From Candidatus Auribacterota bacterium (GTDB lineage Bacteria > Auribacterota > UBA6266), in assembly GCA_023136205.1 (NCBI GenBank), contig JAGLRQ010000026.1, forward strand, positions 1 through 17,532: DNA of 17,532 nt, in the 5' to 3' direction. Under the pieces are notes generated by a model. That model saw only the letters and a list, made by a program, of their open reading frames with translations, did not search any database and had not been told where the DNA came from. Both the position numbers and the translations under genes were made by a program. Positions 1 to 17,532 of this stretch are shown here, piece after piece; within the stretch, counting starts at the first letter, position 1, and each line of letters opens with the position of its first letter.

Positions 1-138
1 CGTATTATCAGTTGAGCCATCGTCAATAACGATAATTTCGTGTGCTTTATAATCTTGATTCAGGACACTTTCAATCGCATCTGATATAAATGGTTCCCCG
101 TTATACGCAGGAATTAGTACACTTATTTTTGGATTCAT
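1..138 (-). CDS. Glycosyltransferase family 2, N-terminal fragment (gene continues beyond the left edge)
   Basis: Absent from the supplied ORF track (too short). My translation of the minus strand from ATG at 138 is [46 protein letters not shown]. This is a canonical GT2 N-terminus (SVLIPxYN plus DDGSTD nucleotide-sugar-binding motifs). GGAG (ctcc 147-150 on +) lies 8 nt upstream of the ATG. The gene overlaps the 3' end of the preceding gene by 38 nt in another frame. Confidence 0.8.
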
Positions 139-1528
139 AGTGTTTTCTCCACTCATTAGAAAAGAAACCGACATAATCTGAAAAGGTATTGCCCTGACTT
201 ACATTCTTCCAGAGTTCTCGTGATGCAAAACCTTCCGAAATAAATGGTACATCACTAATCTCTTTTAATAAATTTCTGAGAACTCTTTTGCCTTTACTAT
301 AACCAACGTTATATTTTGCCGGAAGAAACATTGCCGTCTTTATAATAGAAAAGTGATGATGCGGTGAGATAAATTTGACATTTAGCGCGTTTGCAGTCGC
401 TTTAATCCTTTCCATGCCTTCGTTTGAAGACCACAGGAAAAATCGTATGAGACCATAAAATTTTGACCTATCTATCTTCAAGGCGTTATTATAGACATGA
501 TAAACATTTAATATCTCATCCTTGTGTTCTTCCGGCAAATTAAAATGCTCTGTATATACATCGTAAAAGCGAGTTTTGGTCGATTTTATGTAATCCAGCG
601 CCTTGCCTATGATAGTATCTGTACCTACCTTCTTATTGAGATTTATACCGACTCTCTTATTGAGCAATATCTTCTCAAGCAACCACTCCTTGCAATACTC
701 CCTTCCGTTCTGAAAATGAGTGTCTGCCCCATAGCCATCTAACATATAAAATCCCGATATATCCCCCGTGCATTTTACCATTTTTTTAATCATTAAATAT
801 TCAGCTAATCCCGTCACGCAAAAACACGGATCATCGAGACTATCGAAATACGCATTGATATCGGCTGCGTCTACTTTATCCGTTCCATATAAAGTGTTCC
901 ACGGTATATCTTTTAAATGCCCGCCTAATCTTTTTTGCAACCTTTTCTCATCCTCCTGAGTCTCAGCGTAATGGCAAATCTTAACAATATGGTCTTTGAA
1001 TAATTCATATAATAAGAGGGAATCGCATCCACCACTTAACGAAAGTATCGCATTTTTGTTAAAAGAAGATTTTATTTCTGCAATTGCTTTTAAAAAAGCT
1101 CTCCTAAAATCTTCGATATCGTATTTTATGGTGTCGTTAAAATAGCTTTTTAGCTTATCCGTATTATAATTATAAGACCACCTTGATTCCTCTTGCCTCG
1201 AGATCTCCAGACCGATACCCGGCAAGGTTTTTCTTACGCCTTTTAATATCGTAAAAGGATAGGGTACATACCCTCTTTTCAGTTGAATTGGCCAAAGAGC
1301 ATCGTCAATGGAATAATCATAAAAATCCTTCAACTTATTTGAAATGACAATATTTTCGCCTTCGGTTACATAATATAATTTGTCAATTCCGAATAAATCC
1401 GGAGTTAAAATTACCTTGTTGCCAAACACTTCTACTGTGGACCCTATTCTATCCGTAACTATATTCGCTGTTTTATAAACGGTTGTATTGCCGTTCCTAC
1501 CATAGACACCCTTTAATACTACATTCAT
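101..1528 (-). CDS. Asparagine synthetase B-like ATP-dependent amidotransferase/amidoligase (PP-loop), lacking the glutaminase nucleophile
   Basis: 475-aa ORF. It has the PP-loop ATP-pyrophosphatase motif [14 protein letters not shown] at about aa 160-175, as in the AsnB synthetase domain. The N-terminal region is short (about 150 aa) and begins MNVVLKG, so there is no Cys2 Ntn nucleophile. ATG 1528 lies 4 nt after the flippase stop, with GGAGG upstream. Confidence 0.72.
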
Positions 1529-1532
1529 CTAT

Positions 1533-3095
1533 CTACCTACCTCCTCGTTTTCTAAGAAACGCCGGGGTTTTTATCTTTTCTAATCTTGAGTAAAATTTAA
1601 AAAGAAATTCTCGTACAAGTGATTTTTCCCGCATGTCAAATATCAAACTATAGCTTAAAATAAAATAAAAAATCGCGCAAACTAACATTGTCAAAAGCAT
1701 GATTAAAATTGACGCCTTTGTAACAAATTTAAGGTAGTAAAAGAAAAGGCCAAAAGCTGCACATAGTACTAACGGCTTTACAAAGGAATTGATATAAAAT
1801 TTTAAATAAGGAATGCCGGCAATCCTGCAGGTATAGTAAGGAGAAAAAACAAGTGTCTGGAAAAATATAGCAATCGCAGCTCCCAGAGCAAAACCGGCCA
1901 ATCCCATTTTAAAATGAAGCGCGAATAAAAGACTTAGTATAATATTTAAGACAGAGCAAAAGAGCGTAACAATGCTGGGAATTTTAACCTTAGAAAAAGC
2001 TAAAGTAACCCCCCCTGAACACGCAAATACCAAACTGGGAAGCAAACCAACAATATGTATATACATAGGAACTATAGCGTCCTTAAACTTTTCCCCGACC
2101 CACAAAAAGACCAGTTCCTTCCCATAAAGGACGAGCAGTATACAAGCAGGTATTGATATTAGAGCGGAGACTTTGGTAAGAGAGGAATAGATTCGCCCAA
2201 CTCGTTTAAAGTCTTTTTTGGCCACCAATTCCGTAAAAGTCGGGGTTAATCCCCAGAAGGAGCGAGAAATCAACCGCTTCAACATATTCACGAACTTTAG
2301 GCTTATGGCGTATATACCATTAAAGGCCGGGCCCAAAAATCGATTAATCAAAATCATGTCAGTACGCGCGTAAAGCATATGGCCCAGAGAACCAATCGTT
2401 TGGAAGGACATGAAAGAAAAGAGTTCTTTTATTTTCGCGAGAGAGGCATCTTTGATTCTTATTTTTAAATTAGGAAAGAGCTTCTTGGCACCTCTTAAAA
2501 TTAAAACTTGCTCCACCATGACAGCAGCCAAATAGATCCAACCATAGTAATAAAGCTTCGGTGGGAATAGCCCGTATATCAAAAAACAAAGCAAAAAACG
2601 CGTTACATTCCTAAACCCTATATAAATATTAACAAGATCAAAACGCTGCTTGGAGTAGATAACTGCCCAGGCAGGTGTAAATCGGAATCGCAGCAAATAT
2701 GAAACAATCAGAAGAATAAATAATACTCGCATCCCCTGGGCAAATTCTACGGGGACAGTAAAAAGTCTTGTAAAAAATACCCAGATTATAAACCCTATGG
2801 CTGATGCAATTGCTATAATTCCAAATAAAATAACTTCTCCGGATGCAATGTAAGCGTTACTTTCCTCGTGCTTATTTTGCATAAGATAAAACCCCACATA
2901 CCGTCCAAGCGCCAGCCTAAAGCCATTAAATGCCATATCAAAAAACTCAATCAACGATTCCGCCAAGATAATAAGCCCAAAACCCTGCAGACCCAAACTC
3001 CTTATTAAAAACGGGACAAGTGCCAGGCCCAGAATCATTTCAAAAACACGTCCCACATTATTACTAAATATATTTATAAAAATCCGCTTTTTCAC
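1533..3095 (-). CDS. Wzx-type oligosaccharide/polysaccharide flippase (MOP superfamily polysaccharide biosynthesis protein)
   Basis: 520-aa ORF made almost entirely of hydrophobic helices (roughly 12-14) separated by short K/R-rich loops. The N-terminus ...NNVGRVFEMILGLALVPFLIRSLGLQGFG is typical of Wzx/RfbX-like proteins. GTG start at 3095 lies 3 nt after the GT9 stop. The family call is by pattern recognition, not search. Confidence 0.75.
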   Translation of the reverse strand: MKKRIFINIFSNNVGRVFEMILGLALVPFLIRSLGLQGFGLIILAESLIEFFDMAFNGFRLALGRYVGFYLMQNKHEESNAYIASGEVILFGIIAIASAIGFIIWVFFTRLFTVPVEFAQGMRVLFILLIVSYLLRFRFTPAWAVIYSKQRFDLVNIYIGFRNVTRFLLCFLIYGLFPPKLYYYGWIYLAAVMVEQVLILRGAKKLFPNLKIRIKDASLAKIKELFSFMSFQTIGSLGHMLYARTDMILINRFLGPAFNGIYAISLKFVNMLKRLISRSFWGLTPTFTELVAKKDFKRVGRIYSSLTKVSALISIPACILLVLYGKELVFLWVGEKFKDAIVPMYIHIVGLLPSLVFACSGGVTLAFSKVKIPSIVTLFCSVLNIILSLLFALHFKMGLAGFALGAAIAIFFQTLVFSPYYTCRIAGIPYLKFYINSFVKPLVLCAAFGLFFYYLKFVTKASILIMLLTMLVCAIFYFILSYSLIFDMREKSLVREFLFKFYSRLEKIKTPAFLRKRGGR

Positions 3096-3098
3096 CTT

Positions 3099-4223
3099 TT
3101 ACGGCCTCTCGATCTTTTTATTACTACCTATGATTTCTTTTACCTTCTCTAAAACAAATTCAGGGGTTATTAAATCCATACAATCAGATACGGGGCATCG
3201 GCCGTCAAATCTCTGTTTAAAGCAACACAAGCAATCCAAGTCGGGCTGAAGAATCACACCTTTTTCATATAAGTAAAATTCATTTTTATTAAAAATATTA
3301 TTAAGCAGGATAACATTTCTTTTTAAACCAATTGCAATATGCAGGGCCATAGTAACTTGTGTAACAACTACATCGCACTGATCAATTAAATCGACGAATT
3401 CAGAAAGTTCAAAAAATCCTGGATATTTCGCAGAAGTTTCAGTTGAAATGCGCAAGTTTTTCTTGTGCTCTTGAGGGCCGCCAAGAAGCAAGACTTCCAA
3501 ATTTAATTTCTTCAATCCATTTATTAAGTCAATCCAATGCTTGTCTTTCCAGAGCCGCGTTGTCCAGCGCGCACCGCAACCGGTGTTTAATCCTATAACG
3601 GTTTTACGCTTTTCTATATTATCCCAGGATTGATTTACACTCTTTTCCAAAATATATTCCTCACCTTTAAATTCAAAACCACAAATTTCAAAAATTTCCT
3701 GCATGTAATTTTTTGTACCGGCTTTATTCAAGTCATCCCACACCCCTGTGAGCCATTTGCGGGTAGTACTCCCTGTGCTAAGTGGTTTACATTTTCCGAA
3801 AGAATCCATACCAAAACCCGTCTTCTTTTGTGCTTCAATTTCCGATGATAGTGCAATGGCATTGTCATCTTTATCTAAATTAATCAGCCGGGAAAATTCC
3901 TGCGCCTTGAGCCATGTTATATCTTTAAGGTTGAACGAAAGTATTTTATCTACCCACTTAATTGGAACAAAAATTGGATAGTAAGTAAGCCAGACGATTT
4001 CCGCGTGTGGGTAGATACTCCTTAACTTTCTTAATAGAGGTGTCGTCCGGATCACATCACCTGCCGCTCCAAGTTTGATAATTAAAATTCGTTCTTTTAA
4101 CGGTTCATAGAGATTACAACCTTCGCAAAGGCATCCGGTTTTCTTGTGCGGTTTGCATGGGATATGTCCGCGATACCATCTACAATCGGTTTTGGTTATT
4201 CTTGATTTCCGCGGGTTTTTCAT
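3099..4223 (-). CDS. Glycosyltransferase family 9 (heptosyltransferase-like, GT-B) with Cys-rich N- and C-terminal segments
   Basis: 374-aa ORF. RILIIKLGAAGDVIRTTPLLRKLRSIYPHAEIVWLT is the hallmark GT9 N-terminal motif (K-x-x-x-GD, then P-x-L-x-x-L). The second Rossmann half follows (VIGLNTGCGARW..K.W, LLLGGPQE). AAGGAG SD overlaps the stop of the upstream BNR gene. There are five Cys in aa 14-36 and five more in the last 50 aa. Confidence 0.85.
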   Translation of the reverse strand: MKNPRKSRITKTDCRWYRGHIPCKPHKKTGCLCEGCNLYEPLKERILIIKLGAAGDVIRTTPLLRKLRSIYPHAEIVWLTYYPIFVPIKWVDKILSFNLKDITWLKAQEFSRLINLDKDDNAIALSSEIEAQKKTGFGMDSFGKCKPLSTGSTTRKWLTGVWDDLNKAGTKNYMQEIFEICGFEFKGEEYILEKSVNQSWDNIEKRKTVIGLNTGCGARWTTRLWKDKHWIDLINGLKKLNLEVLLLGGPQEHKKNLRISTETSAKYPGFFELSEFVDLIDQCDVVVTQVTMALHIAIGLKRNVILLNNIFNKNEFYLYEKGVILQPDLDCLCCFKQRFDGRCPVSDCMDLITPEFVLEKVKEIIGSNKKIERP

Positions 4224-4236
4224 TTATCGCTTCTCC

Positions 4237-6357
4237 TTACAATTTTGTTTTGTATACTGATCCGGCATAACGCGTAATATAGATATGGAAATCCTTTGGA
4301 TTATAAGCCATGGCGGCGACACCTCTGCCATAGGGTATATCCCCTGTAATTTCCGACCAAGTATGGCCTTTATTATTACTCCAATAAATTTTCCCACCTG
4401 TCTTTCCGTGCCATTGGACAGTGCTGACACCTATCCTATCCGGGTTTTCGGGATGTATAAACATAGCATCCACTGTGCCTTCTCCTGGAAACCTTGTTAG
4501 AAGCAACCAACTCTTTCCATGGTCTTTAGATACAAAAACTACGGGGCCGTTTAAACTACCTGTGACATAAATCCAGCCTTCCGGATTAACTGCCATGTCT
4601 AATACCTTTGTTGTTTTTTTAAACACGCGTTTCCAGGATTTTCCTCTATTCTCCGAGACGTAAACGCCGCCCCTCTTTCCATACGCACCCCAGAATAACC
4701 TATCTGAATTTGTCGGATCAACTGCCAACGCGTTATAAATCCTTTTTGACCCCGGCTGGCCTTCTGAATATTCCCAGTGCCAGCCACCGTCACGCGAAAC
4801 ATAAAGGCCGCCCCCATCATCTCCATCAATACCAAGGTAAACAATGTTGGGCTCTTTTGGGTCCAAAGCTAACGCCCTGGGATAGCCTTCCTTCCACATT
4901 GTATTAATTTTAGGACGCCTTTTCGGCAGCCCGTCTCGAACGGCAATAAAATTCATGCCCGCGTCTCGGCTTATAATAACCTGGTTGAAATCTACACCCC
5001 AGGGAGAGGAGGTCGCGATAATGTGTTTCGGATTTTTCGGGTTTGTAACCACACGCCAGACATGGCCGTTAACACTCTTTCTATAGCCTTTTTGGGGGAA
5101 AACCGGCTTATAGTTCTTGCCTCCGTCGGTGCTTTTTAGCAGGCCATTATCCATAGCAGCTACATAAATTTCGCCAAGAGCTGTGATATGAATATCCGAA
5201 CCCACGGTATTTGGCGAACCGTTAATTTTTTCACTCCATGTCTCCCCCTTATCATCGGAGCGCCATACACCCCATCCATCGCTAAAATAAAGTGTTTCCG
5301 GATCAAATACATCAAATGCTACTGAATTAGACTTGCTGAAATCCTTCTTCCATACACGCGTAGGATTAAGATTTTTATCATGTTTCAAATTCCTCTCAAT
5401 ATCTTTCCATGTCTCTCCGTTATCAGAACTTAGGAACACCCCACCATGCCAGCCTTTTTTCCACCCGGCTAATAATTCAATGTTACCGGAATTATCCTCC
5501 CTAACCGCCAACCTGATTACCTCACCGCGAGGGACGGCACTGGTAAACTGCCATGTTTTACCTTGATCAACACTATAAGCAACCTGTTTACCGGCAGTAA
5601 CATACAAGGCTTCCCTTTGCGCCATAGATACCATATCCCACACTTTTTCGCGCCCGATTTCACTCTTTATCCACTTCTTTCTTTGAAAATCATAATATCT
5701 AAGGCCTAATTCGGACGCTGCAAAGAGTTTCCCTCCGTCACGCGTAAGATGCAGGGCAGTGATCGGAACCCTCTTCCCGAAAGGATATTTGTTCCATCCC
5801 AGAAACCTCCATACTCCCCCGAAATATCGCCATATTTTTCCACCGTTTTGGGAAAAAAGTACTGTCCCGCGGTTTGTTCCTACATATAACTTATTATAAT
5901 CGTGTGGATCTACTACAATAGAACGGTAATTCCCGGGCCTCAAAAAGTTAATTTTGCCCCTCATCGACTCCAAATAACGCCATGTCTTTCCGCCATTATT
6001 CGATCTCATAATTCCGTCTTTTGTCCCTATATAAATCACATTGGAATTAGAAGGCGCTATAGCCAAAACCGCTATATGCAGGTTTATTAATCCCTGGTTG
6101 ATAAAATACCATTTCTCTCCCTTGTCATCGCTTCGCCACAACCCAGTTACATCACTCAAAAGATACACTCTACCTTTAATATTGAGATCTGGCACAACAG
6201 CCGGGTAAGCTCCTCCTCCATACCACCCTGCAAATTCCCAGCCATAGTTCTGCTGTTTTGCCTCGACAGCATCCACACCATGGCAGTATGACAATGCTAA
6301 AAAGAAACCAGCACAATAAAGCAAAAGATTTATTATTTTAATATTCCGTTTCCTCAT
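4237..6357 (-). CDS. Exported BNR/Asp-box repeat protein, probable tandem beta-propeller (GH74 / sortilin-Vps10-like architecture; possible glycan hydrolase or binding protein)
   Basis: 706-aa ORF with a signal-peptide-like N-terminus, MRKRNIKIINLLLYCAGFFLALSYCHGVDAVEA. I count 13 Asp-box or near-Asp-box motifs spaced about 45-60 aa apart: SDDKGEKW, SNNGGKTW, SQNGGKIW, TRDGGKLF, SVDQGKTW, SSDNGETW, SDDKGETW, STDGGKNY, SRDAGMNF, SRDGGWHW, SENRGKSW, SKDHGKSW, SNNKGHTW. Confidence 0.85.
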   Translation of the reverse strand: MRKRNIKIINLLLYCAGFFLALSYCHGVDAVEAKQQNYGWEFAGWYGGGAYPAVVPDLNIKGRVYLLSDVTGLWRSDDKGEKWYFINQGLINLHIAVLAIAPSNSNVIYIGTKDGIMRSNNGGKTWRYLESMRGKINFLRPGNYRSIVVDPHDYNKLYVGTNRGTVLFSQNGGKIWRYFGGVWRFLGWNKYPFGKRVPITALHLTRDGGKLFAASELGLRYYDFQRKKWIKSEIGREKVWDMVSMAQREALYVTAGKQVAYSVDQGKTWQFTSAVPRGEVIRLAVREDNSGNIELLAGWKKGWHGGVFLSSDNGETWKDIERNLKHDKNLNPTRVWKKDFSKSNSVAFDVFDPETLYFSDGWGVWRSDDKGETWSEKINGSPNTVGSDIHITALGEIYVAAMDNGLLKSTDGGKNYKPVFPQKGYRKSVNGHVWRVVTNPKNPKHIIATSSPWGVDFNQVIISRDAGMNFIAVRDGLPKRRPKINTMWKEGYPRALALDPKEPNIVYLGIDGDDGGGLYVSRDGGWHWEYSEGQPGSKRIYNALAVDPTNSDRLFWGAYGKRGGVYVSENRGKSWKRVFKKTTKVLDMAVNPEGWIYVTGSLNGPVVFVSKDHGKSWLLLTRFPGEGTVDAMFIHPENPDRIGVSTVQWHGKTGGKIYWSNNKGHTWSEITGDIPYGRGVAAMAYNPKDFHIYITRYAGSVYKTKL

Positions 6358-6447
6358 TTAGATATTTCCATAGTTAAGAAAAATATGCTTACTCGCAGTT
6401 CAACAAGTACTAATTAATTCAGGTGACTCTTTTCAAAAAAACTTTAA

Positions 6448-7851
6448 TTAGAACCCATCTAAATGAATCATATCTTTAAAACTTTCTTTTTCTCGTACAA
6501 CCCAATGTTTGCCTTCTGAAACCATAACTACAGCAGGACGTGTAAAAGAAAAGTTGTTAGAAAAAGATATACAGTAAGCGCCTGAATCCATAATCGCTAT
6601 AATATCTCCCACTTCTAATGATGGTAATTTCTTACTCCTGTATAATATATCTATAGGTGTACAGATAGGGCCAGCTATCTTATAAAACTCACTGCAATTA
6701 GAGTTCATCTTATTTGCAACAAAAATTTCGTGATATTCCCAAGAAACCGGAGAAGCAATATTTATACCTGCATCAATAATTGCAATTTTAAGCTCACTAT
6801 TTTCTTTTTTTAAATCACAGACTTTTGCAAGTAACATTTGAACATTACTAGTAATTACTCTCCCTGGCTCAAATAACAAAACTGGTAATTTTAGTTTATA
6901 CCTCTCACATTCTTTACAGACCGTACTTACAATTTTTTTTGCAAATACTCTCATAGAGGGAGTATCTTCAATATTTGGCGGCAGATATGGTTTATTAAAA
7001 CTATGATGCAATTTAGATTCAGTTTTGCTAAAACTTTTTACAGTTGACACACCAAACCCTCCACCTAAGTCAAGATATTTAATATAAACACCTAGTTTAT
7101 CTTTTATCTCATTAACAAATCCGAAAATCTCTCCCATTGCCTTTTCATACATAGAAGTGCTTTTTATATCGGTCCCAAGATGAATATGTATAGCTTCTAT
7201 CTCCAGACACCTCATTTTGCCTAATTTTTCAAATGCGTTAAATGCTTCCCCTGATTTTATTTTAAATCCAAACTGACTTCCCCATCCAATACTTGTGCAT
7301 ATCCTCACCCCAACTTTTGGACGTATTCCTAGACTTTCTGCAATTTTTTTGATTTTTTCAATTTCATTAAAAGAATTAATGTTGATAAGCTTAATTCTAT
7401 TTTTAATAGCTACTTTTAAACTTTCATCCGATTTATTAGGCCCGTTATAAATAATTAAATCCGGACTTACTCCTAATTTGAACGCAAGCCATAATTCATA
7501 AGGTGATATAACTTCTGCTCCTGCTCCACTTTCATGAAGAACCTTTAAAATTGCCGGTATAGGATTTGTTTTATATGAATAGTAAATTCCGAAATTAATA
7601 TTATTAGATTTAAAACTTTCATAAAATTCATTGTAATTTTTTTTTAATAGATCTCTGTCCACGACATGGATAGGCGTACCGTATTTTTCGGCTAGTCCAA
7701 CACAATTACAGCCCCCAATTACTAAACGGCCTCTTTTATTTACCTCCAATCCCCATAATGAATAATCCAGGTTAGTGGTTTTTCTTCTTTCAAATCTGCA
7801 TATTACATACTTAATAAACAGTAACAATATTTTTTTTATTAGTTTTTTCAT
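6448..7851 (-). CDS. PLP-dependent decarboxylase, alanine-racemase fold (fold III; diaminopimelate/ornithine/carboxynorspermidine decarboxylase family), substrate unknown
   Basis: 467-aa ORF with the family motifs: PLP-lysine YYSYKTNP, HIHLGTD, glycine loop LDLGGGFGV, EPGR, active-site Cys GPICTPIDIL, and MDSGAY. The core starts ...AEKYGTPIHVVD as in LysA/ODC. A roughly 35-aa extension with a hydrophobic helix (KKILLLFIKYVICRF) precedes it. There is no SD before ATG 7851. The gene is very A+T-rich. Confidence 0.85.
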   Translation of the reverse strand: MKKLIKKILLLFIKYVICRFERRKTTNLDYSLWGLEVNKRGRLVIGGCNCVGLAEKYGTPIHVVDRDLLKKNYNEFYESFKSNNINFGIYYSYKTNPIPAILKVLHESGAGAEVISPYELWLAFKLGVSPDLIIYNGPNKSDESLKVAIKNRIKLININSFNEIEKIKKIAESLGIRPKVGVRICTSIGWGSQFGFKIKSGEAFNAFEKLGKMRCLEIEAIHIHLGTDIKSTSMYEKAMGEIFGFVNEIKDKLGVYIKYLDLGGGFGVSTVKSFSKTESKLHHSFNKPYLPPNIEDTPSMRVFAKKIVSTVCKECERYKLKLPVLLFEPGRVITSNVQMLLAKVCDLKKENSELKIAIIDAGINIASPVSWEYHEIFVANKMNSNCSEFYKIAGPICTPIDILYRSKKLPSLEVGDIIAIMDSGAYCISFSNNFSFTRPAVVMVSEGKHWVVREKESFKDMIHLDGF

Positions 7852-7863
7852 TATTTATAAGAT

Positions 7864-8598
7864 TTATAAGGATTTCATAAAGACATTCCAAAACTTAGAA
7901 TTTTGTATAAATATCTTTCTTTTGCGTTTCTTATTTCCTAAAGATTCCACTATATATAACTTAAAACCTATTATTTTAAAATATTTAACATACTGATAAG
8001 AAATATAACCAGTGGAGCGAATTATTCCGTTGGAAGCAACATTAGTCGGCGAAGTAACTGCAAATATTCTGTCAACCGTTGTGTTGTTGAATAAATATTT
8101 TTCAATAAATTTCAAAGATCGTTTTGATAGAAGTCGTCCACGATATTGCCAAGGCACATACATTCCTGTTATATAGCCAATATTTGATGGAATATTCAAA
8201 TTTTCTATTCCAAGCCATGGAATGCTAATATTTAAGAATTCATTCCACCCATAAAAAGTATTTTCACCTTTATCTCTATCTTTCGCTAGAAACAACATAT
8301 ACCCTTTGCTCAACCTCTCTAATGCTTGTTTTTTTGTATACCAAATATCGTTATATTCTTCATCTATATCTTCTTCCGATGCTCTGTTAATATTTAAATT
8401 ATCAGTGAAATTCAAGCTGGAAGCTGTTAGTTGTTTCTGATACATAATTGCCTTTCTATATACAAATATAAAAGATCCTGACAAATACCAGATTCTCTTT
8501 ATAAAACTTATCAGGCCTTTCTCGTTATAATGATTAATTGCTTTTCTTATATATTTAGTCCATAATTTAACCCCAATATCTCTTAATATTATGTTCAT
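7864..8598 (-). CDS. GNAT-family N-acetyltransferase-like protein with hydrophobic N-terminal extension
   Basis: GNAT-like core with beta4-alphaA-type segment YITGMYVPWQYRGRLLSKRSLKFIEKYLF, followed by RIFAVTSPTNVASNGIIRSTGY (motif B-like). The N-terminal roughly 70 aa contain the hydrophobic helix LISFIKRIWYLSGSFIFVY. My preferred start is ATG 8598 (MNIILRD...). It has GAGG 7 nt upstream and an ATGA overlap with the stop of the upstream GT2. The track start at 8622 is 8 codons further upstream. Confidence 0.6.
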   Translation of the reverse strand: MNIILRDIGVKLWTKYIRKAINHYNEKGLISFIKRIWYLSGSFIFVYRKAIMYQKQLTASSLNFTDNLNINRASEEDIDEEYNDIWYTKKQALERLSKGYMLFLAKDRDKGENTFYGWNEFLNISIPWLGIENLNIPSNIGYITGMYVPWQYRGRLLSKRSLKFIEKYLFNNTTVDRIFAVTSPTNVASNGIIRSTGYISYQYVKYFKIIGFKLYIVESLGNKKRKRKIFIQNSKFWNVFMKSL

Positions 8599-9515
8599 TG
8601 ATGTTCCTCGCTTAAATAACATGGAAACCTCTTTTCCTTGTTACGCTTCGATATAATTTGCGGTAATAAAAAAACACATGATTTCTGTCTCTTCATGAAT
8701 CTTAATAGTTGTTTAAAACCTTCAAGAGGCCCTGCGGAGCAAATTTCTTTGCGCAGCAGATTTGTGTAATAAACGAACAAATTATAGATTATGTGATGGC
8801 GCGGGTCCTTTAATGCCTCTATCAATTGGTTTTTATCAAAAAGAGCCCGGCTCTTTGGATTATTGCTTCGTATCAGATGGTCCCAATGAAAGATTACCCC
8901 CCTCAGGGAAAATACTGTCTTGAAGCCGTGGTAATATGCTCTTCTAACTAGATCATTTTCTTCCGCGTACATAAAATATAGAGGGTCAAATAGTCCGACT
9001 TTCTCAATGAATCCTTTTTGTAGAAACATTCCCGCTCCGATAATTTTTTCCGTTCGAACATAATCAATTGACCTGTCCTTATCTTTAGCGGCGTCCACAA
9101 ATTTCTTATATGTTGGGGATAACTCTTCTGTTTTTTTATAATCGTATTGAGCCGGAACAATTATTCCAAGTGATTCATCCCGCTCAGCCAGTTTCACAAG
9201 TTCTGTAATACACCCTTTAGCTATATATGTATCCTGATTTAACAAGAGAATGAATTTTGCTCCCTTTTTCAGGGCATATCGGCATCCGATATTGTTGCCT
9301 TCGGCAGTACCGCAATTCTTACTGTTTCGCATAAGATCCACGCCAGTAAAATTTTTCTTAACGTAGTCGTAGCTGTCATCGCTGGAAGCATTATCTACTA
9401 CAAGAAGACGAAAGTTCTGATAATCGGAAGACAAAATTGAGCCTAAGCATTTATCCATCCATTTTTTCCCGTTGTAAAGCAAAACTACTACATATACCAA
9501 AGGACTTTTTTGCAT
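8595..9515 (-). CDS. Glycosyltransferase family 2 (rhamnosyltransferase-like subgroup)
   Basis: LVYVVVLLYNGKKWMDKCLGSILSSDYQNFRLLVVDNASSDDS (GT2 N-terminal and DxD-region motifs), NCGTAEGNNIG, and YAEENDLVRRA (acidic catalytic region). The track start is ATG 9527, immediately after the upstream stop (TAGATG). I prefer ATG 9515 (MQKSPLVY...), which has GGAG 6 nt upstream. Confidence 0.85.
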   Translation of the reverse strand: MQKSPLVYVVVLLYNGKKWMDKCLGSILSSDYQNFRLLVVDNASSDDSYDYVKKNFTGVDLMRNSKNCGTAEGNNIGCRYALKKGAKFILLLNQDTYIAKGCITELVKLAERDESLGIIVPAQYDYKKTEELSPTYKKFVDAAKDKDRSIDYVRTEKIIGAGMFLQKGFIEKVGLFDPLYFMYAEENDLVRRAYYHGFKTVFSLRGVIFHWDHLIRSNNPKSRALFDKNQLIEALKDPRHHIIYNLFVYYTNLLRKEICSAGPLEGFKQLLRFMKRQKSCVFLLPQIISKRNKEKRFPCYLSEEHQ

Positions 9516-9527
9516 AATAATCTCCAT

Positions 9528-10847
9528 CTACTTATTTTCAGCACATGAATTATCCTGCGTATTGTCTTTCGTAACAATTTGCATCTCTTTTTTTCTAAGT
9601 TGAAGAGCAACATTGTCTTCCGGAAATTCCACCATATCATACGCAATAGGCGCATCTCTGGTTACATTCTTCTTCAATATGGCAAATTCCGTCAACCCTA
9701 TCGGAACCAGATTCTCCTTGCGAACGGTTTCCGCACGGTCTATTAATCCATAAACGGTAAAACCGCCTATCCCGTCCAGACGCACTCCTGCCCCAATGTT
9801 TTTCTTTGCCACAGCAAGAACATCGGCAACCTTTCTCTTGTGCGGCAAGGTAGCAATATTAAATAAAGCCGCTTCAACTACCGACTTGGCCGCCGCAAAG
9901 TAACAAAGATGATGATCCTTAAAAAACAAATAATAGGGCCCCTTACCCTTTTTCAGGTAATCCAGATCTTCAGCTACGAATTTATCTTTTCTTTTACCCA
10001 CAACAAAAACACCAGCTGCCTGGTTAATGCCCTTAATTCCCATCACGTAATCAACAACCCCTTCCTGTTTAATTATCTTAAGGAAATCTTCCACAAGATT
10101 AACTTTAGTAGTTGTTGGACCGTGCATACCTCTCTTATCAGGAACAAGCTCTGTTCCATTGGCCAATACGGCCATCTCCAACCCCTGTTTTGTTCCGTCA
10201 GCGAAAGAAGATATCATTCGTGGATTATGCCCGGGACGAACCCATGGTAAAACCCCTTCGGGATTCTGGTAAACATCTATAAAATTCTTGGAACTTCCAG
10301 CAATAACTATATCAAATCCATATAACTTAACCTCGTCAATCATCTGGGATATTACACACGGCTGGTCACCGTCAGTGGTAGAATATACAACGTTCTTTTC
10401 CTTAGCAAGTTGGTGGACAGCAAAGCCCAGTGTGCTGTCCATTTCGATGTTAGCTGTAACAAAATGGATTCCCTGCTGAATGGTGCTCACAGCACATTCG
10501 GCACCTACTTTTATATCACCGGTTGTTTCAAAAACGACATCAATCCCCGTAAGGTTTTGTAATATTTCCAGTTCCGCGCTTACAATATATTTGTTTTTTG
10601 AATTAGCTGCTTTATATTCTTTGTCAGAGGTAACTACTTCTATGTCGGAAGGCGATACCCCCGCGTATTTTAAAGATTTTACAGCACGTTCTATTGTACG
10701 CGTCACGATCAATCGGGGAACTATACCAGGCCAATGGTAGAATTCACGAATTACGCCACTCCCAAACCATCCAGAGCCTACAACACAAACGGAAATTAAC
10801 TCATTTCGTTTTTGTCGCTCAAGTAAAATCTCCCTGAAAATTCTCAT
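9528..10847 (-). CDS. NAD(P)-binding oxidoreductase, homoserine-dehydrogenase-like N-domain with C-terminal SAF-like domain (COG4091-type architecture, function unknown)
   Basis: 439-aa ORF with Rossmann motif VCVVGSGWFGSG. IDVVFETTGD..GAECAVSTIQQGIHFVTANIE..GDQPCV resembles a homoserine-dehydrogenase-type NAD-binding domain. The C-terminal AKKNIGAGVRLDGIGGFTVYGLI resembles a SAF beta-clip. The family is recalled from memory, not searched. AGGAG lies 6 nt upstream of ATG 10847. This is the first gene after the 523-bp intergenic region. Confidence 0.62.
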   Translation of the reverse strand: MRIFREILLERQKRNELISVCVVGSGWFGSGVIREFYHWPGIVPRLIVTRTIERAVKSLKYAGVSPSDIEVVTSDKEYKAANSKNKYIVSAELEILQNLTGIDVVFETTGDIKVGAECAVSTIQQGIHFVTANIEMDSTLGFAVHQLAKEKNVVYSTTDGDQPCVISQMIDEVKLYGFDIVIAGSSKNFIDVYQNPEGVLPWVRPGHNPRMISSFADGTKQGLEMAVLANGTELVPDKRGMHGPTTTKVNLVEDFLKIIKQEGVVDYVMGIKGINQAAGVFVVGKRKDKFVAEDLDYLKKGKGPYYLFFKDHHLCYFAAAKSVVEAALFNIATLPHKRKVADVLAVAKKNIGAGVRLDGIGGFTVYGLIDRAETVRKENLVPIGLTEFAILKKNVTRDAPIAYDMVEFPEDNVALQLRKKEMQIVTKDNTQDNSCAENK

Positions 10848-10982
10848 GTTTAACTCCTATCATTTTTCTCTTAGGATTAATAGTTTCTGCCAAGAATTAA
10901 AAAAAATTGCAGATAGCTTTTGCATCAGTAACATCTTTTGCAGTTAAGGTCGGATTCATATACTGGAGAGAGAAATACAGTT

Positions 10983-11052
10983 GAAAGGATCCTTCCCTTT
11001 ATAGATACCAATTGACCACCCAAATTCCTTTTTTCCAAAAGGGAAACCTTTC
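10983..11052. repeat. Interrupted inverted repeat (6+8 bp arms, 37-nt spacer) in the putative leader of the minus-strand operon
   Basis: GAAAGG(10983-10988)-ATCC-TTCCCTTT(10993-11000) is complementary to AAAGGGAA(11038-11045)-A-CCTTTC(11047-11052). That gives 14 Watson-Crick pairs. A competing small hairpin, CCTTTT-TTCC-AAAAGG (11027-11042), shares the 3' arm. Confidence 0.4.
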
Positions 11053-11157
11053 GATTTGCCAAAATATACCCCAGCTATAAAACTGCACATAATACATATA
11101 GATAGCATAAATATGTTAAGTCAATTTAATTCCGATTTAATACGGCCTGACTTTGCT

Positions 11158-11179
11158 TGTTATTGTTATAACAATAACA
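11158..11179. promoter_or_regulatory. 22-bp perfect palindrome, candidate operator for a dimeric DNA-binding protein
   Basis: TGTTATTGTTA|TAACAATAACA. All 11 pairs were verified by hand, and symmetry breaks at 11157/11180. Each half is a tandem TGTTA pentamer. The site lies in the divergent intergenic region, about 35 bp upstream of a TTGACT hexamer on the minus strand (11124-11119) and about 150 bp upstream of the plus-strand -10 candidate. Confidence 0.5.
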
Positions 11180-11322
11180 GAAATATAGAGAATATTTTAA
11201 CATAAAAAGTCTATAAAAGCCAATTAACTTTTTTAATTTAACATTTCTATAATACGACTTAAATTTTTTCCCACAAATTCCCAAAACAAAGAGTGTACGG
11301 AGTTTTGTTTCTTGTAAAAATG

Positions 11323-11331
11323 TGATAGAAT
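11323..11331 (+). promoter_or_regulatory. Candidate extended -10 promoter element (TGnTAGAAT) for the plus-strand sulfotransferase
   Basis: TGATAGAAT at 11323-11331, 40 nt upstream of ATG 11371. GGAG SD sits at 11360-11363. The -35 is poor (TTTTGT). The context is A+T-rich, so a chance match is plausible. Confidence 0.3.
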
Positions 11332-11370
11332 AAAACAACATAACACAAGTATCTTTATCGGAGAGTAAAA

Positions 11371-12126
11371 ATGCCTATCTTTCATAAATATAAGTGTATA
11401 TTTATTCATATACCTAAAAGTGCCGGTACCAGCATAAATGCCGCGCTGGGTATCGGAAGGGAAGGTATACAGAGCCTATTTGGGAAGATAAGCGAAGAGG
11501 AAAAAGCAAAATACGGATTAACTCATACGTATTGGCATCATTGTCCCATCTCTTTGATAAAACCGTTTATACCTGAAGGCACTTTTAATAAATACTTTAA
11601 ATTCACTTTTCTAAGAAACCCCTGGGACAGGCTTGTTTCCCTCTATCTTTATTACAAACGGATTAATCGCCTGGATAATATAGACGCGTTTAACCAGTGG
11701 ATATTATCTAAAAAAATTCCTAGCTACCTTTTGATTCCGCAACTCGATTATATCACTGACAATAAGGGAAATATTATCGTAGATTTTATCGGCCGCTTCG
11801 AGAACATGGATAAAGACTGGAAATATATTACCAAAAAAACAGGCGCAAACACCAAGCTGCTGCCGGTAAATATATCTAATCGTAAACATTATAGCTTTTA
11901 CTATACTGAAGAAACCATTCGGGTTGTCGGAGAACTTTTTAGAAAAGACATTGAGACATTCGGCTATAGATTTGAAAAGGCCGGTTTTTTTAAAAACAGG
12001 GTGTATGATGTAAAACATCTGGCTTTATTCAGCGGAGAACGCACTATATTAAAAATAAAGACACTCTTAAAAGAGACATTTCCCAAGTTATATTTGAAAC
12101 TTAAAAAATTTAAACAAAAATTGTGA
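11371..12126 (+). CDS. Sulfotransferase (Sulfotransfer_2-like, carbohydrate-sulfotransferase-type motifs)
   Basis: 251-aa ORF. IFIHIPKSAGTSI (5'-phosphosulfate-binding loop) lies near the N-terminus, and FTFLRNPWDRLVSLY (3'-phosphate-binding motif) lies about 65 aa later. GGAG is 7 nt upstream of the ATG. This is the only plus-strand gene. Confidence 0.8.
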   Translation: MPIFHKYKCIFIHIPKSAGTSINAALGIGREGIQSLFGKISEEEKAKYGLTHTYWHHCPISLIKPFIPEGTFNKYFKFTFLRNPWDRLVSLYLYYKRINRLDNIDAFNQWILSKKIPSYLLIPQLDYITDNKGNIIVDFIGRFENMDKDWKYITKKTGANTKLLPVNISNRKHYSFYYTEETIRVVGELFRKDIETFGYRFEKAGFFKNRVYDVKHLALFSGERTILKIKTLLKETFPKLYLKLKKFKQKL

Positions 12127-12186: not shown

Positions 12187-13503
12187 TCAATTGTGTTTTT
12201 TTGAGAAAATAATTATATTTTCCCATTTACTATAGTACCTTTTTGACAGCGGAAACGCAATTTTCAGTTTCCATAATAAATTACAATATAAGAACTTAAA
12301 TAAAGGAAATTTAAAAATTATAACAAAAAATAAACATAAAAACTTACCCCTTGTGGCCCATTTCATATTTTTGGTTATTTCTTCAACATAAACGCGATAT
12401 TCATGTAAAGCTTCTCTATTTTTGTGATATCTTAGAAACATCGCAGTCCTTATTTTTTTATTGGCAATAACTTTCGCATGATAAAATTCTGCTTTCTCGG
12501 TATAAAGATGACCCGCTGTTTTAAACTTTTCTAACATAATTTCACCTATTTGTGTTCTTGCCAGCACAAGATTCAAGTCGCCGTGTTTATCCCAAGTATC
12601 GCCTATTGCTATATCAGCAAATTCATTAGTATGATTTATGCATAGTTGGCATCTTAAGGGAGAATAATAGGGTGACAAGAGGATGTGGGGGCGCTGCCCC
12701 CAGAGTTCATTGATTTGTTTCACCCGACCATCTGCCAAAATAATTTTTGTTTGATACCCATTAATCTTATCTCTATTAGAATATTTTTTTATCGTAGCTT
12801 TGTTGATCTTCTGTTCACGTAATAGCTTTTCTGTAACTGTCTGTTTTACATTAATCCCGCAAAAAATTCCCAAGGTCAAAAGGATTTTTTGTCTAAAAAT
12901 ACTACTTATATCTTGAAGTTTTCTTACACTTTCTATCGCACAGGGAACACCGATAACCGCGTATTTACCTTCAAGTGTTTTGATTTTTTTTAGTAACGAA
13001 TTAACAGGTATGCATACATATTTCGACCCTGAGTTTTTAATTATATCTTCGCCATTAAAAACAAGTTTACCTTCAGGTACCCATGGCTTCTGTTCAGAAT
13101 ATCCCGCAAGGATTACTCCTTTGACTATTTTTTCATCCAAGAGAAATTTAGCCAATCCACTTGTAACACCGCCGCTGGCACAACTATCTATATTAATATT
13201 TTTTGCCTTGGCATAAAAACATTTCCGGTATATCCCATAATGCTGCCTGGTTTCTAACATGCTTCCAAAAACCGTTTTATAAAGATTTGGGTAATCAATA
13301 TTATAGCCGGGGCAAACTTTTAAGCACAAACCACAATTATTACATTTATCATTAACTTTAATTGGCTCTAAGGTATGGTTATTAATCCCTAAACAGTTTA
13401 AGGGGCAGATCCCGATACAAGTGCCGCAAATAGAACAAAGCCCTTTTTTAATAACATCGGAGCTAAGCACATCAACATTTTGTTTATTATCAAGTATTTT
13501 CAT
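12187..13503 (-). CDS. 2x[4Fe-4S] ferredoxin domain fused to coenzyme F420 hydrogenase/dehydrogenase beta-subunit (FrhB)-like domain
   Basis: 438-aa ORF with two CxxCxxCxxxCP motifs (CSICGTCIGICP, CNNCGLCLKVCP). FrhB-type signatures follow (SGGVTSGLAKFLLDEKIVKGVI; VIGVPCAIESVRKLQ). The C-terminal tail is hydrophobic (FLCLFFVIIFKFPLFKFLYCNLLW). The gene is A+T-rich and has no obvious SD. Confidence 0.78.
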   Translation of the reverse strand: MKILDNKQNVDVLSSDVIKKGLCSICGTCIGICPLNCLGINNHTLEPIKVNDKCNNCGLCLKVCPGYNIDYPNLYKTVFGSMLETRQHYGIYRKCFYAKAKNINIDSCASGGVTSGLAKFLLDEKIVKGVILAGYSEQKPWVPEGKLVFNGEDIIKNSGSKYVCIPVNSLLKKIKTLEGKYAVIGVPCAIESVRKLQDISSIFRQKILLTLGIFCGINVKQTVTEKLLREQKINKATIKKYSNRDKINGYQTKIILADGRVKQINELWGQRPHILLSPYYSPLRCQLCINHTNEFADIAIGDTWDKHGDLNLVLARTQIGEIMLEKFKTAGHLYTEKAEFYHAKVIANKKIRTAMFLRYHKNREALHEYRVYVEEITKNMKWATRGKFLCLFFVIIFKFPLFKFLYCNLLWKLKIAFPLSKRYYSKWENIIIFSKKHN

Positions 13504-13540: not shown

Positions 13541-14569
13541 CTACAGTGGCAGATCCGGCCAGAACTTTTTCAAAGGTGAATCCTTTATGACCAAGGCAAT
13601 ATCTCTCTTCTCCTCATCAGAAAGCTGAGTCTTCCACTTATTCATACTCTTCCTGGGATCTTTGAATATACTGTAATAGGACTTGAGTGTTGATCTATGT
13701 ATTTTCTTTTCCGTAGTCGTCTTCTTGATATAATCTTTGGTAAATTCCGTCATTTCCCATCCTGCAAAGTCAAAGATCCTTTTTGATACTCCAAGCGGAT
13801 CCCTGCACATATCCTCATATACTATCAATAACCCGTTATCATAATTCTCTATAAATTCGACCATAGGTTCTACGTGAATTCGCCACGCGACTGCACCAAA
13901 AGTCTGTAGATTCATTTTTTCAAGGCCATCTGAGTATTTCAAAAACGACTTGTTGCCGGATTGAACAATTTCCTCGCGAAGAAGTCCATTTATTTTCGCA
14001 CGTAAGCTTTTAGCTTTTCCTTTTTCCAAATCCGGCTGAGGAGATTTTGGACGCACTCCTTTGAATAAATGTCCTTTTACTCCGACTAAGTGCGAAGCAA
14101 CATTCGCAAAAGGATTTCTAACCAGGCCAACTATCTTCGGCTTAAGAATGCGGCAGAAATCGGGAAGCTTTTCGCTTGGAAAATTAACCTGTTTAATCAA
14201 GACTGAAATTTCGTGCTTAGCATGGTTAAGTCGCGGCTTACCGTAATATTCATAAAGGCCTTTACACCGTTTCACCCTATTAGCCAGGGCATATAGCGCA
14301 TGAAGTAGAATTGGGTTTTGCGGCCGGAAAGACTTTGGTAAGAACGGGGGCATATCGACTCCATGATGACATTGCAGGCATAGCTTTTCAAATTGAGCAC
14401 GAAGTTTTTCCGCATCCGGCTTATTTAAACTGTCAAACCAGCCGCGATACGGAATCTTGAGGTATGGCTCGTACTTATAAACGCAGTGATAGTAGGTGTT
14501 CATAATACCAGCCATCCAGCTTGTACCCGAACGGCCCCTGCCAATAAGCACTACATATTCCTTTATCAT
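13541..14569 (-). CDS. Sulfotransferase (P-loop GxxRSGTS type, distinct family from the 251-aa enzyme)
   Basis: 342-aa ORF. VVLIGRGRSGTSW (5'-PSB) lies at the N-terminus, and GLVRNPFANVASH (3'-PB) about 150 aa later. AGGAG is 5 nt upstream of ATG 14569. The gene follows cysC after a 94-nt gap. Confidence 0.8.
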   Translation of the reverse strand: MIKEYVVLIGRGRSGTSWMAGIMNTYYHCVYKYEPYLKIPYRGWFDSLNKPDAEKLRAQFEKLCLQCHHGVDMPPFLPKSFRPQNPILLHALYALANRVKRCKGLYEYYGKPRLNHAKHEISVLIKQVNFPSEKLPDFCRILKPKIVGLVRNPFANVASHLVGVKGHLFKGVRPKSPQPDLEKGKAKSLRAKINGLLREEIVQSGNKSFLKYSDGLEKMNLQTFGAVAWRIHVEPMVEFIENYDNGLLIVYEDMCRDPLGVSKRIFDFAGWEMTEFTKDYIKKTTTEKKIHRSTLKSYYSIFKDPRKSMNKWKTQLSDEEKRDIALVIKDSPLKKFWPDLPL

Positions 14570-15263: not shown

Positions 15264-15274
15264 GTTTCTCCGGA

Positions 15275-17050: not shown

Positions 17051-17062
17051 AATTTTTTCAAC

Positions 17063-17532
17063 TCACATATATCCGTCTTTTCGCAAATCCTCAAGCCCGC
17101 CGCCGTCTTCTTTATCCTGCGATCTTCCGGAGCGTTCAGCTATATTCGCGAACTTTCCCGTTTTCAATTCTTCAATAATCTCTTTTACGTTTTTTGCCGT
17201 AGATTCCACGGGATCGGTGCAAGGCTCACAGCCAAGGGAACGATACCTTTTGCCTTCCCCCTGATCAAAATACAAGGACACCACAGGGATGTTTTCTCTA
17301 TTGATATATTCCCAGATATTCAGCTCTGTCCAGTCAAGCAAAGGGTGTATCCTTACGTGTGTCCCCGGGGCAAAATCCGTTTTATACTGATTCCAGAATT
17401 CCGGCGGCTGATCGCCTAAATTCCAATCATTATTTCCGTCTCTCGGGGAGAAATACCGTTCTTTTGAGCGGCTTCCCTCTTCGTCCGCCCTTACACCAAC
17501 AATCACCCCGGTGTACGGCTCAGTGCTCTTGT
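17063..17532 (-). CDS. cysD: Sulfate adenylyltransferase subunit 2, C-terminal part (5' end beyond the right edge)
   Basis: The reading frame stays open to the window edge: ...[80 protein letters not shown]. This matches the conserved C-terminal two thirds of CysD. The track's M at 17506 is an internal GTG. Confidence 0.93.

Follow-up and report, generated by a model that had tools for sequence, protein, structure and literature searches.

We analysed a 17,532-nt stretch of a Candidatus Auribacterota genome (positions 1 to 17,532 of contig JAGLRQ010000026.1; hereafter the window) together with a syntenic 13.8-kb contig, L087, from a Candidatus Aureabacteria metagenome-assembled genome (MAG; phylum Ca. 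Auribacterota, Planctomycetes-Verrucomicrobia-Chlamydiae group), which is the nearest public sequence. In a polysaccharide operon of the window, two adjacent genes encode a pyridoxal phosphate (PLP)-dependent decarboxylase of the alanine racemase (AR) fold and an acyltransferase of the GNAT family. The decarboxylase appears catalytically complete, lacks the residues that hold the distal end of meso-diaminopimelate (DAP), and belongs to a large clade of its own that is found in glycan loci. By analogy with decarboxylases of siderophore, butirosin and microcin C biosynthesis, we tentatively propose that the pair is a mobile module for side-group tailoring in a Wzx-type polysaccharide operon, which would decarboxylate an amino-acid unit that already bears an acyl group at its distal end. 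The features of the two genes are listed here, with the evidence for each in brackets.

6448..7851, minus strand: AR-fold (fold III) PLP decarboxylase, 467 aa (Pfam, NCBIfam, solved structures, AlphaFold2)
7747..7851, minus strand: N-terminal extension of the decarboxylase, about 35 aa (1twi alignment, model, relatives)
7570..7572, minus strand: codon of Lys94, the predicted PLP Schiff-base lysine, in the motif YSYKTNP (alignments)
6970..7032, minus strand: 21-residue insertion, aa 274-294, after the GGGFG phosphate loop (gap against 1twi)
6730..6762, minus strand: specificity-helix region, aa 364-374, NIASPVSWEYH (1twi alignment, 81 relatives)
6649..6663, minus strand: catalytic-Cys loop, aa 397-401, CTPID (1twi alignment, 81 relatives)
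7852..7863, minus strand: 12-nt spacer from the GNAT stop to the decarboxylase start, without a Shine-Dalgarno motif (open reading frame map)
7864..8598, minus strand: GNAT, 244 aa from Met9; the longest open reading frame reaches 8622 and has 252 aa (Pfam, AlphaFold2, Foldseek)
8479..8595, minus strand: two-helix N-terminal extension of the GNAT, aa 2-40 of the 244-aa form (model, family coverage)
8131..8148, minus strand: putative GNAT motif A, Q151-Y-R-G154-R-L, ahead of helix 155-172 (family conservation, model)

A first-pass annotation of the window had described a complete decarboxylase with all its catalytic motifs, 12 nt away from a GNAT gene. This description is borne out by the map of open reading frames (6448-7851, 467 aa, and 7864-8622, 252 aa, minus strand, 12 nt apart), by Pfam, and by residue conservation in 81 relatives. 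The 467-aa protein matches PF02784 (Orn_Arg_deC_N; 125.4 bits, cut-off 23.4, E 3e-36) and PF00278 (Orn_DAP_Arg_deC; 56 bits, cut-off 23, E 5e-15). Residues K94, H224, G263-G264, E328, C397, D401 and Y426 are invariant in the 81 relatives, R331 is kept in 78/81, and the position of G265 is Gly in 57 and Ser in 24. The catalytic set (K94, H224, G263-265, E328/R331, C397 and Y426) aligns with the DAP decarboxylase of Methanocaldococcus jannaschii (MjDAPDC, 1TWI) and with FigC, and Lys94, invariant in 81/81, pairs with the lysine of both enzymes. MjDAPDC is the best solved relative (30% identity, template-modelling (TM) score 0.81-0.87); further solved relatives are DokD, FigC, BtrK and SbnH at 21-27% identity (DokD 24-25%, BtrK 23%). 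The AlphaFold2 model of the decarboxylase has a mean predicted local distance difference test score (pLDDT) of 91.7. At the level of sequence, the protein is thereby identified as a catalytically complete AR-fold PLP decarboxylase of the branch that holds the DAP decarboxylases (DAPDC), the D-ornithine decarboxylases (D-ODC), FigC and BtrK.

Judged by curated cut-offs, the enzyme falls in none of the named equivalog families tested. The top-scoring NCBIfam model is lysA (TIGR01048), whose 274.3 bits are split in two stretches and stay below the cut-off of 297.9; lower still are NF041039 (FslC/FigC N-citrylornithine decarboxylase; 175.1 bits, cut-off 500), NF052544 (DokD D-ornithine/D-lysine decarboxylase; 174.4 bits, cut-off 700) and TIGR03099 (exosortase-A-associated decarboxylase; 151.2 bits, cut-off 478.45). 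In the 1TWI alignment Arg343 is replaced by Ser367, Tyr347 by Trp371, and Cys-Glu-Ser by Cys-Thr-Pro. R343 is known to bind the carboxylate of DAP and the acidic residue beside the catalytic Cys its side-chain amine, and FigC has lost both (Li et al., PMC7857480). Across the 81 relatives the position equivalent to R343 is M, E, F or R, with Arg in only 7/81, and the residue after the Cys is H, T or S and never D or E, followed by Pro399 in 75/81. The 21-residue insertion relative to MjDAPDC is present throughout the clade. In a neighbour-joining tree the whole family is set apart from MjDAPDC and FigC, which were the references of that tree (sequences from the structure alignments; SbnH, AcsE, MccE, BtrK, DokD and TIGR03099 stood outside the reference set). 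As aligned, then, neither the distal carboxylate nor the distal amine of meso-DAP finds its binding residues in the decarboxylase. Because of the sub-cut-off lysA score, the 30% identity, the lost Arg343, Tyr347 and Glu, the insertion, the N-terminal extension and the separate tree position, the enzyme is, as judged from its sequence features, not LysA.

DAPDC, D-ODC, FigC, SbnH, AcsE, MccE and BtrK form one clade, all members of which save DAPDC and D-ODC act on conjugated substrates; enzymes with free basic substrates carry acidic residues both beside the catalytic Cys and on the specificity helix (PMC7857480). The acidic residues of the relatives that form free diamines are absent here, and a conjugated substrate is therefore more likely.

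How widespread this enzyme is was seen in a word-indexed protein search, which returned 1796 matches, relatives being 381-493 aa long and labelled 'diaminopimelate decarboxylase' or 'family protein' in the databases. At least 533 loci came out of a genome scan, among them loci in Myxococcus xanthus, Corallococcus coralloides and Cognatazoarcus. Genes within 7 kb of the decarboxylase were compared in 78 loci by clustering and in 83 locus entries by hidden Markov model (HMM) search. The commonest partner is a 413-aa ATP-grasp protein, usually directly adjacent (53/78 loci by clustering, 59/83 entries by HMM). Other partners are GT4 glycosyltransferases (30 loci), full-length AsnB (20-22), CapK/PaaK-like ligases (14-17) and GT2 glycosyltransferases. 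The decarboxylase belongs to a separate, large glycan-locus clade, in which it stands beside glycosyltransferases and carboxylate-amine ligases. A compact arrangement is seen in Myxococcus eversor (L077, 5494-13073) and similarly in loci L076 and L082, where an islet holds GT4, GT2, the decarboxylase and a convergent ATP-grasp gene; the Myxococcota islet is set among housekeeping genes (GlnRS, arginyl-tRNA-protein transferase, HisRS) rather than in a Wzx/Wzy locus.

Five lineages have the GNAT gene beside that of the decarboxylase. They are the window with its MAG, L001 from an Omnitrophota genome, L003 from 'Vecturithrix', L017 from a Desulfobacterales MAG, and the metagenome contig L085. In the last four the decarboxylase precedes the GNAT, the reverse of the order in the window. 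The decarboxylases of the window, L085, L001 and L003 form one clade in the neighbour-joining tree, with L017 apart, and the ranks of similarity agree for the two proteins (L085 > L001 > L003 > L017). In sister clades a 410-aa protein adjoins the decarboxylase instead (7 loci), with weak matches to FemAB, Acetyltransf_6 and TIGR03019 and a CapK-like ligase 1-2.5 kb away; this partner is another GNAT-fold transferase. Its profile found no solved relative, and a relation by sequence between the 244-aa GNAT and the 410-aa FemAB-like protein was rejected (hhalign probability 0.2%). We regard the decarboxylase and the GNAT as partly a unit, in which pairing is facultative.

Two of the paired loci have further genes of interest. 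In L003 the clade decarboxylase/GNAT pair is closely preceded by a second, different AR-fold decarboxylase (6443-7684, 413 aa), which has a hexapeptide acyltransferase and a CapK-like ligase as neighbours. In L085, the closest decarboxylase relative with genomic context retrieved, the upstream genes (521-5177) encode a thiamine pyrophosphate enzyme, a GMC oxidoreductase, an amino-acid dehydrogenase of the Glu/Leu/Phe/Val type and an ATP-grasp protein; these could form a pathway for an unusual amino acid that feeds the decarboxylase.

The assignment of the second gene of the pair to GNAT stands as far as the fold is concerned. The AlphaFold2 model (pLDDT 73.6) matches more than 40 GNAT structures in Foldseek with probability 1.0, confirming, at the level of the model, a GNAT fold for the 244-aa protein. 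The matches include MshD, glycine N-acyltransferase, VipF and, at rank 23, WecD, none of them specific. The Pfam match is marginal (PF00583, 21.8 bits against a gathering cut-off of 20.7), relatives scoring more strongly; no NCBIfam model matched, nor did any solved structure by sequence (best E 0.25). The stretch Q151-Y-R-G154-R-L is what we take to be GNAT motif A, the pyrophosphate-binding loop for acyl-CoA. Compared with the consensus Q/R-x-x-G-x-G/A, it keeps Q and G and has Leu (L156) in the last position; among homologues R153 never varies and G154 is kept in at least 90%. The acyl-CoA loop therefore seems largely retained. An exhaustive profile search gave 283 representatives of this GNAT family at E<=1e-3, and 101 at E<=1e-10, most of them 215-260 aa long, and the word-indexed search added no new members. 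A few members are fused to ATP-grasp, Acetyltransf_6, Wzy_C or radical SAM domains. The closest homologues (L089, 5136-10091, also L086 and L090) are translationally coupled to a CapK/PaaK-like ligase gene, with Wzx next in line. Directly upstream of the GNAT in L089 are genes for a thiolase and a 3-hydroxyacyl-CoA dehydrogenase, a hint that this family may use other acyl groups, such as 3-hydroxybutyryl, besides acetyl.

The 252-aa start given for this protein in the first-pass annotation did not hold up. An ATG at Met9 (position 8598) has GAGGA 6 nt upstream and overlaps the stop of the preceding GT2 gene in an ATGA; homologues begin at this point or later, and the gene caller on L087 likewise gives 244 aa. 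By these signals and alignments the true start is probably Met9. The decarboxylase ATG, as had been noted, has no Shine-Dalgarno motif upstream, and we take its start to be correct because the N-terminus is kept at the protein level in relatives of 40-70% identity.

Both genes are also set off by composition. Their G+C content is 0.316 (decarboxylase) and 0.288 (GNAT), against 0.33-0.47 in the other window genes, and G+C at third codon positions (GC3) is 0.224 and 0.261, against a mean of 0.40 (sd 0.054, range 0.29-0.49) in the other 12 genes, or z-scores of about -3.3 and -2.6; the A+T-richness first noticed by eye in a few lines is thus upheld. Between window positions 6448-8598 and L087 positions 6008-8158 the pair is the most conserved DNA, with 98.5% and 96.9% identity for its two genes against 89-95% in flanking genes. 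Such identity between two MAGs fits recent cassette exchange, a sweep, or unusually strong constraint. Taken together, the A+T-rich composition, the inter-MAG identity and the recurrence of the pair in other phyla fit the acquisition as a cassette that had been suggested. A search for scars of a mobile element found no convincing direct or inverted repeats flanking the pair.

Each protein was also said to carry a hydrophobic N-terminal extension. The extensions are real, helical and conserved in most relatives, and only their reading as hydrophobic, membrane-inserted segments is unsupported. The 1twi alignment begins at decarboxylase residue 39, leaving an extension that is not in solved DAPDCs; residues 2-21 are modelled by AlphaFold2 as a helix (pLDDT 70-75), residues 1-24 hold 9 Lys/Arg, and the extension is kept in most of 32 relatives. 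In the GNAT model two helices (2-27 and 29-40, pLDDT 38-66) are covered by most family members. By hydropathy, with a segment of about 19 residues and a Kyte-Doolittle mean of at least 1.6 as the criterion, transmembrane anchoring was rejected for both N-termini: the maximal 19-residue mean is 1.08 in the decarboxylase and 1.28 in the GNAT, whereas the flippase, used as a control, reaches 2.75. We infer that both extensions are amphipathic, possibly membrane-peripheral helices, the decarboxylase helix being basic.

These observations can be assembled into the mechanism that we put forward tentatively. The substrate of the decarboxylase would be an amino-acid unit already acylated or conjugated at its distal group, from which the enzyme would remove the alpha-carboxylate, as do FigC, SbnH, AcsE, MccE and BtrK. 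The acyl group could be acetyl delivered by the GNAT, or the glycan carboxylate itself, joined by a ligase. In the former case the GNAT would N-acetylate the distal amine before decarboxylation, an order matched by the GNAT-to-decarboxylase gene order in the window; alternatively it would cap the amine afterwards. The amide to the glycan would be made by a ligase of the adenylate-forming or ATP-grasp type, an ATP-grasp or CapK-like enzyme elsewhere and possibly the AsnB-like protein here. The product would be an amine-bearing substituent, aminoalkyl or omega-aminoacyl, on the glycan. The basic amphipathic N-terminal helices may hold both enzymes at the inner membrane face, where lipid-linked repeat units form. 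A more specific version applies to the clade as a whole, namely that it performs PLP-dependent alpha-decarboxylation, at the membrane, of an amino acid that an amide bond already joins to a polysaccharide, lipid-linked or nascent. For example, Lys, Orn, 2,4-diaminobutyrate (Dab) or gamma-Glu linked through its side chain would yield an aminoalkyl or omega-aminoacyl decoration, then N-acetylated by the GNAT. This specific version we consider doubtful.

Several points weigh against the proposal of a tailoring module. Most decarboxylase loci have no GNAT, and the closest GNAT homologues (61-64% identity) occur in the order GNAT, CapK-like, Wzx without a decarboxylase, with the GNAT of L084 likewise beside a CapK-like gene. 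The AsnB-like gene, which the first-pass annotation had suggested as the partner ligase, finds no counterpart among 86 related loci at E<1e-5 and is therefore not a conserved partner; nor is the trio of decarboxylase, GNAT and AsnB-like gene conserved, the GNAT itself being adjacent in five lineages only. The AsnB-like protein is the only adenylating candidate in the window, a local candidate ligase unsupported by co-occurrence. Its TIGR01536 match covers model positions 134-504 only, it starts with MNVV and has no Cys2, and its SGGCDS PP-loop is intact. No ATP-grasp or CapK-like gene was found in the window by HMM search, ATP-grasp being common among relatives further removed, and no gene for uronic-acid or amino-sugar synthesis is visible in its 17.5 kb. 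The loss of the DAP residues says what the substrate is not and does not show that it is conjugated; sequence alone names no specific substrate. A literature search on the clade and its ATP-grasp, CapK-like, FemAB-like and exosortase partners found no relevant paper, and for every clade member the proposed role draws on sequence, model, context and analogy.

It is possible that the amine is made first and attached afterwards, as the first-pass annotation had it. The decarboxylase would release a free diamine or amine from unconjugated Orn, Lys or Dab, or from a D-amino acid in the way of DokD, the GNAT would mono-acetylate it in the manner of SpeG, and a ligase would attach the remaining amine to a glycan carboxylate. 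Such a route has a precedent in the Campylobacter jejuni capsule, where Cj1436 first makes a free amine and Cj1438C then amidates glucuronic acid (PMC11800397), and it would suit the adjacency of decarboxylase and GNAT, the place of DokD among the nearest structures, and the presence of a glutaminase-less AsnB-like adenylating enzyme in the same operon. We nevertheless find it unlikely: the positions expected to be acidic are Thr398 and Ser367/Trp371 here, D or E never follows the Cys in the clade, the AsnB-like gene does not co-occur with the clade, and Foldseek shows no specific likeness of the GNAT to polyamine acetyltransferases. The two genes might also be functionally independent, the GNAT being an amino-sugar N-acyltransferase of the WecD/PseH type, using acetyl-CoA or another acyl-CoA, and the decarboxylase serving another step of the same glycan. 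Adjacency in five lineages and in either gene order, agreement of the similarity ranks and the grouping of four of the five decarboxylases in one clade make this improbable as well, as do the GNAT-fold gene adjacent to the decarboxylase in sister clades, the unusual composition and high inter-MAG identity that the pair shares, and the lack of a visible amino-sugar aminotransferase in the window. It would account for the absence of the GNAT at most decarboxylase loci and for its closest homologues lying with CapK-like and Wzx genes; WecD is among the structural matches, and the thiolase and 3-hydroxyacyl-CoA dehydrogenase of L089 suggest 3-hydroxybutyryl-CoA as a donor.

We hold a further route, modelled on BtrJ/BtrK, to be highly improbable. 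Here the side-chain carboxylate of Glu or Asp would be activated as a thioester or adenylate and decarboxylated to a gamma-aminobutyryl or beta-alanyl unit, which the GNAT would transfer to a glycan amine. Free omega-aminoacyl thioesters cyclise, and neither a carrier protein (none was found among the scanned window ORFs), nor an ATP-grasp or CapK-like gene, nor any sequence pointer to an acidic substrate is seen in the window. In its favour are the ATP-grasp or CapK-like (PaaK-type, CoA-ligase-like) genes that accompany most clade members, the tight coupling of GNAT and CapK-like genes in several loci, and BtrK itself, a clade-2 relative at 23% identity (PMC7857480). Least credible of all, and almost certainly wrong, is a housekeeping LysA trapped in the locus. 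The earlier annotation had named this, and the lack of a GNAT fold in the second protein, as findings that would count against its own interpretation, and in the analyses made here neither is borne out. That lysA is the best-scoring NCBIfam model (274 bits) and that DAPDCs are the best solved matches would be expected of it; the score under the curated cut-off, the lost equivalents of Arg343, Tyr347 and Glu, the 21-residue insertion with the N-terminal helix, the monophyly of the clade apart from MjDAPDC, its constant setting in glycan-type neighbourhoods and a GC3 atypical for the host would not.

Since the DAP-binding residues are absent and the genes lie in glycan loci across many phyla, the label 'diaminopimelate decarboxylase' is misleading for this clade. 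If the tailoring module that we favour is real, the clade marks bacterial polysaccharides with amine-bearing side groups, and the logic of siderophores and butirosin, ligate first and decarboxylate after, extends to glycans. If decarboxylation on the polysaccharide is true, it would account for a widespread unannotated family and predict a new cationic or capped-amine substituent on environmental sulfated polysaccharides. Among cultured hosts, Myxococcus, Corallococcus and Cognatazoarcus carry relatives with ATP-grasp and GT2/GT4 genes.

The setting of the pair in the window is given by the following features.

101..10847, minus strand: polysaccharide operon of eight genes (gene order, Pfam, NCBIfam, synteny with L087)
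8595..9527, minus strand: GT2 glycosyltransferase directly upstream of the GNAT (Pfam)
8595..8598, minus strand: ATGA in which the GT2 stop and the GNAT Met9 start overlap, indicating translational coupling (sequence)
101..1528, minus strand: AsnB-like adenylating enzyme without the glutaminase nucleophile (TIGR01536 match, sequence)

The eight minus-strand genes, read from 10847 to 101, form a tight operon with intergenic gaps of 0-90 nt. By Pfam and NCBIfam they encode, in order, a DRL-like oxidoreductase, GT2, GNAT, decarboxylase, a BNR/sortilin-like protein, GT9, a Wzx-type flippase and the AsnB-like protein. L087 carries the same gene order, and the two proteins of its pair are 94% and 98% identical to their window counterparts. 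The window GT2 has homologues in 7 related loci, and a GT2 lies directly upstream of the clade decarboxylase in 9 loci, Myxococcus among them. The DRL-like protein, GT9, flippase and sulfotransferases were rejected as conserved partners, having no homologues in the 86 related loci. Sulfotransferases (Sulfotransfer_2, Sulfotransfer_1) adjoin cysD/cysN/cysC in the region next to the operon (11371-12126, plus strand; 13541-14569 and 14664-17506, minus strand). With two sulfotransferases and cysD/cysN/cysC beside the operon, the product of the locus is therefore probably a sulfated polysaccharide.

Some of these neighbours have unusual features of their own. CysN (591 aa) has a weak, partial C-terminal domain resembling adenosine phosphosulfate kinase (50.9 bits, model positions 2-97 of 152), and the separate full-length CysC scores 225.9 bits. 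The first operon gene (9528-10847, minus strand) encodes a 439-aa NAD oxidoreductase resembling DRL_cat and homoserine dehydrogenase. The BNR/sortilin-like protein (706 aa, 4237-6357, minus strand) bears an N-terminal signal-like segment and scores just under the cut-off for F510_1955 glycosylhydrolase (153.8 against 175 bits); a 797-bit homologue lies about 7 kb from a clade decarboxylase in an Omnitrophota single-cell locus (L005). The heptosyltransferase-like GT9 (3099-4223, minus strand) has a Cys-rich N-terminal extension, CRWYRGHIPCKPHKKTGCLCEGC, which resembles a small metal-binding module; such a module is atypical for lipopolysaccharide heptosyltransferases. An FrhB/FdhB-like Fe-S protein (438 aa, 12187-13503, minus strand) has a hydrophobic C-terminal tail and a GC3 of 0.294. 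FrhB/FdhB-like proteins in glycan loci usually go with a polysaccharide pyruvyl transferase, and none is present in the window. Between the operon and the plus-strand sulfotransferase lies a divergent intergenic region (10848-11370, 523 nt, about 0.28 G+C), which is probably a shared promoter region; promoter-like and terminator-like sites are no more frequent in the window than in shuffled sequence.

Among known systems, LysA of M. jannaschii (1TWI) shares with the window enzyme the AR fold and the active-site residues of the dimer type (Lys, His, Gly loop, EPGR, Cys, Tyr). It differs in serving the lysine pathway rather than a glycan operon, and in having neither the N-terminal helix nor the 21-residue insertion. 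Closer in logic are FigC/FslC, SbnH and AcsE, which belong to the clade-2 branch and in which the Arg and the acidic residue are also lost (PMC7857480). These enzymes take over once a ligase has acylated the amino acid at its distal group, the same logic that we propose, and FigC aligns also through the insertion region of the window enzyme. Their partners, however, are NRPS-independent siderophore synthetases and transporters, not glycosyltransferases; identity is 21-27%, and citrate-binding residues are not inferable in the window enzyme.

In butirosin biosynthesis, BtrK with BtrJ and BtrI likewise combines an ATP-grasp ligase with an AR-fold decarboxylase, building an omega-aminoacyl chain that is later moved to a sugar amine. 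The window has no carrier protein and no ATP-grasp gene, its acyltransferase is a GNAT and not BtrH, and identity to BtrK is 23%. The MccE GNAT of microcin C serves immunity. MccE is alike in joining an AR-fold clade-2 decarboxylase to a GNAT, which in MccE is of the RimL type, and its decarboxylase acts on a 3-amino-3-carboxypropyl group already on a larger molecule (PMC7857480). The two domains are fused in MccE and separate genes in the window; no fused decarboxylase/GNAT was found among the relatives, there is no MccD-like transferase, and the MccE GNAT is not among the top structural matches of the window GNAT. WecD, MshD and GLYAT resemble the latter in having a GNAT core with extra N-terminal elements (Foldseek probability 1.0), at only 9-19% identity and TM scores of about 0.36-0.47.

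Cj1436 of C. jejuni belongs to a different PLP fold type. In the HS:2 capsule, as experiments have shown, this PLP decarboxylase supplies the amine, and the ATP-dependent ligase Cj1438C amidates the uronic acid after its incorporation (PMC11800397). Cj1436 acts on free L-serine phosphate, and a phosphatase, Cj1435, is present there and not in the window, whereas the GNAT of the window has no counterpart there. Finally, the nearest concept in the databases, the TIGR03099/TIGR03019/TIGR03098 set of the XrtA/PEP-CTERM system, consists of a decarboxylase, a FemAB-like protein and an acyl-CoA ligase in exopolysaccharide loci, the same trio that is found in our sister clades; it is labelled 'hypoth_equivalog' and is functionally uncharacterised. 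The window differs in its single-domain GNAT partner, in the absence of a visible exosortase and in its TIGR03099 score (151 bits against 478). The window clade looks like a parallel version of this set, with the single-domain GNAT as its rarer partner.

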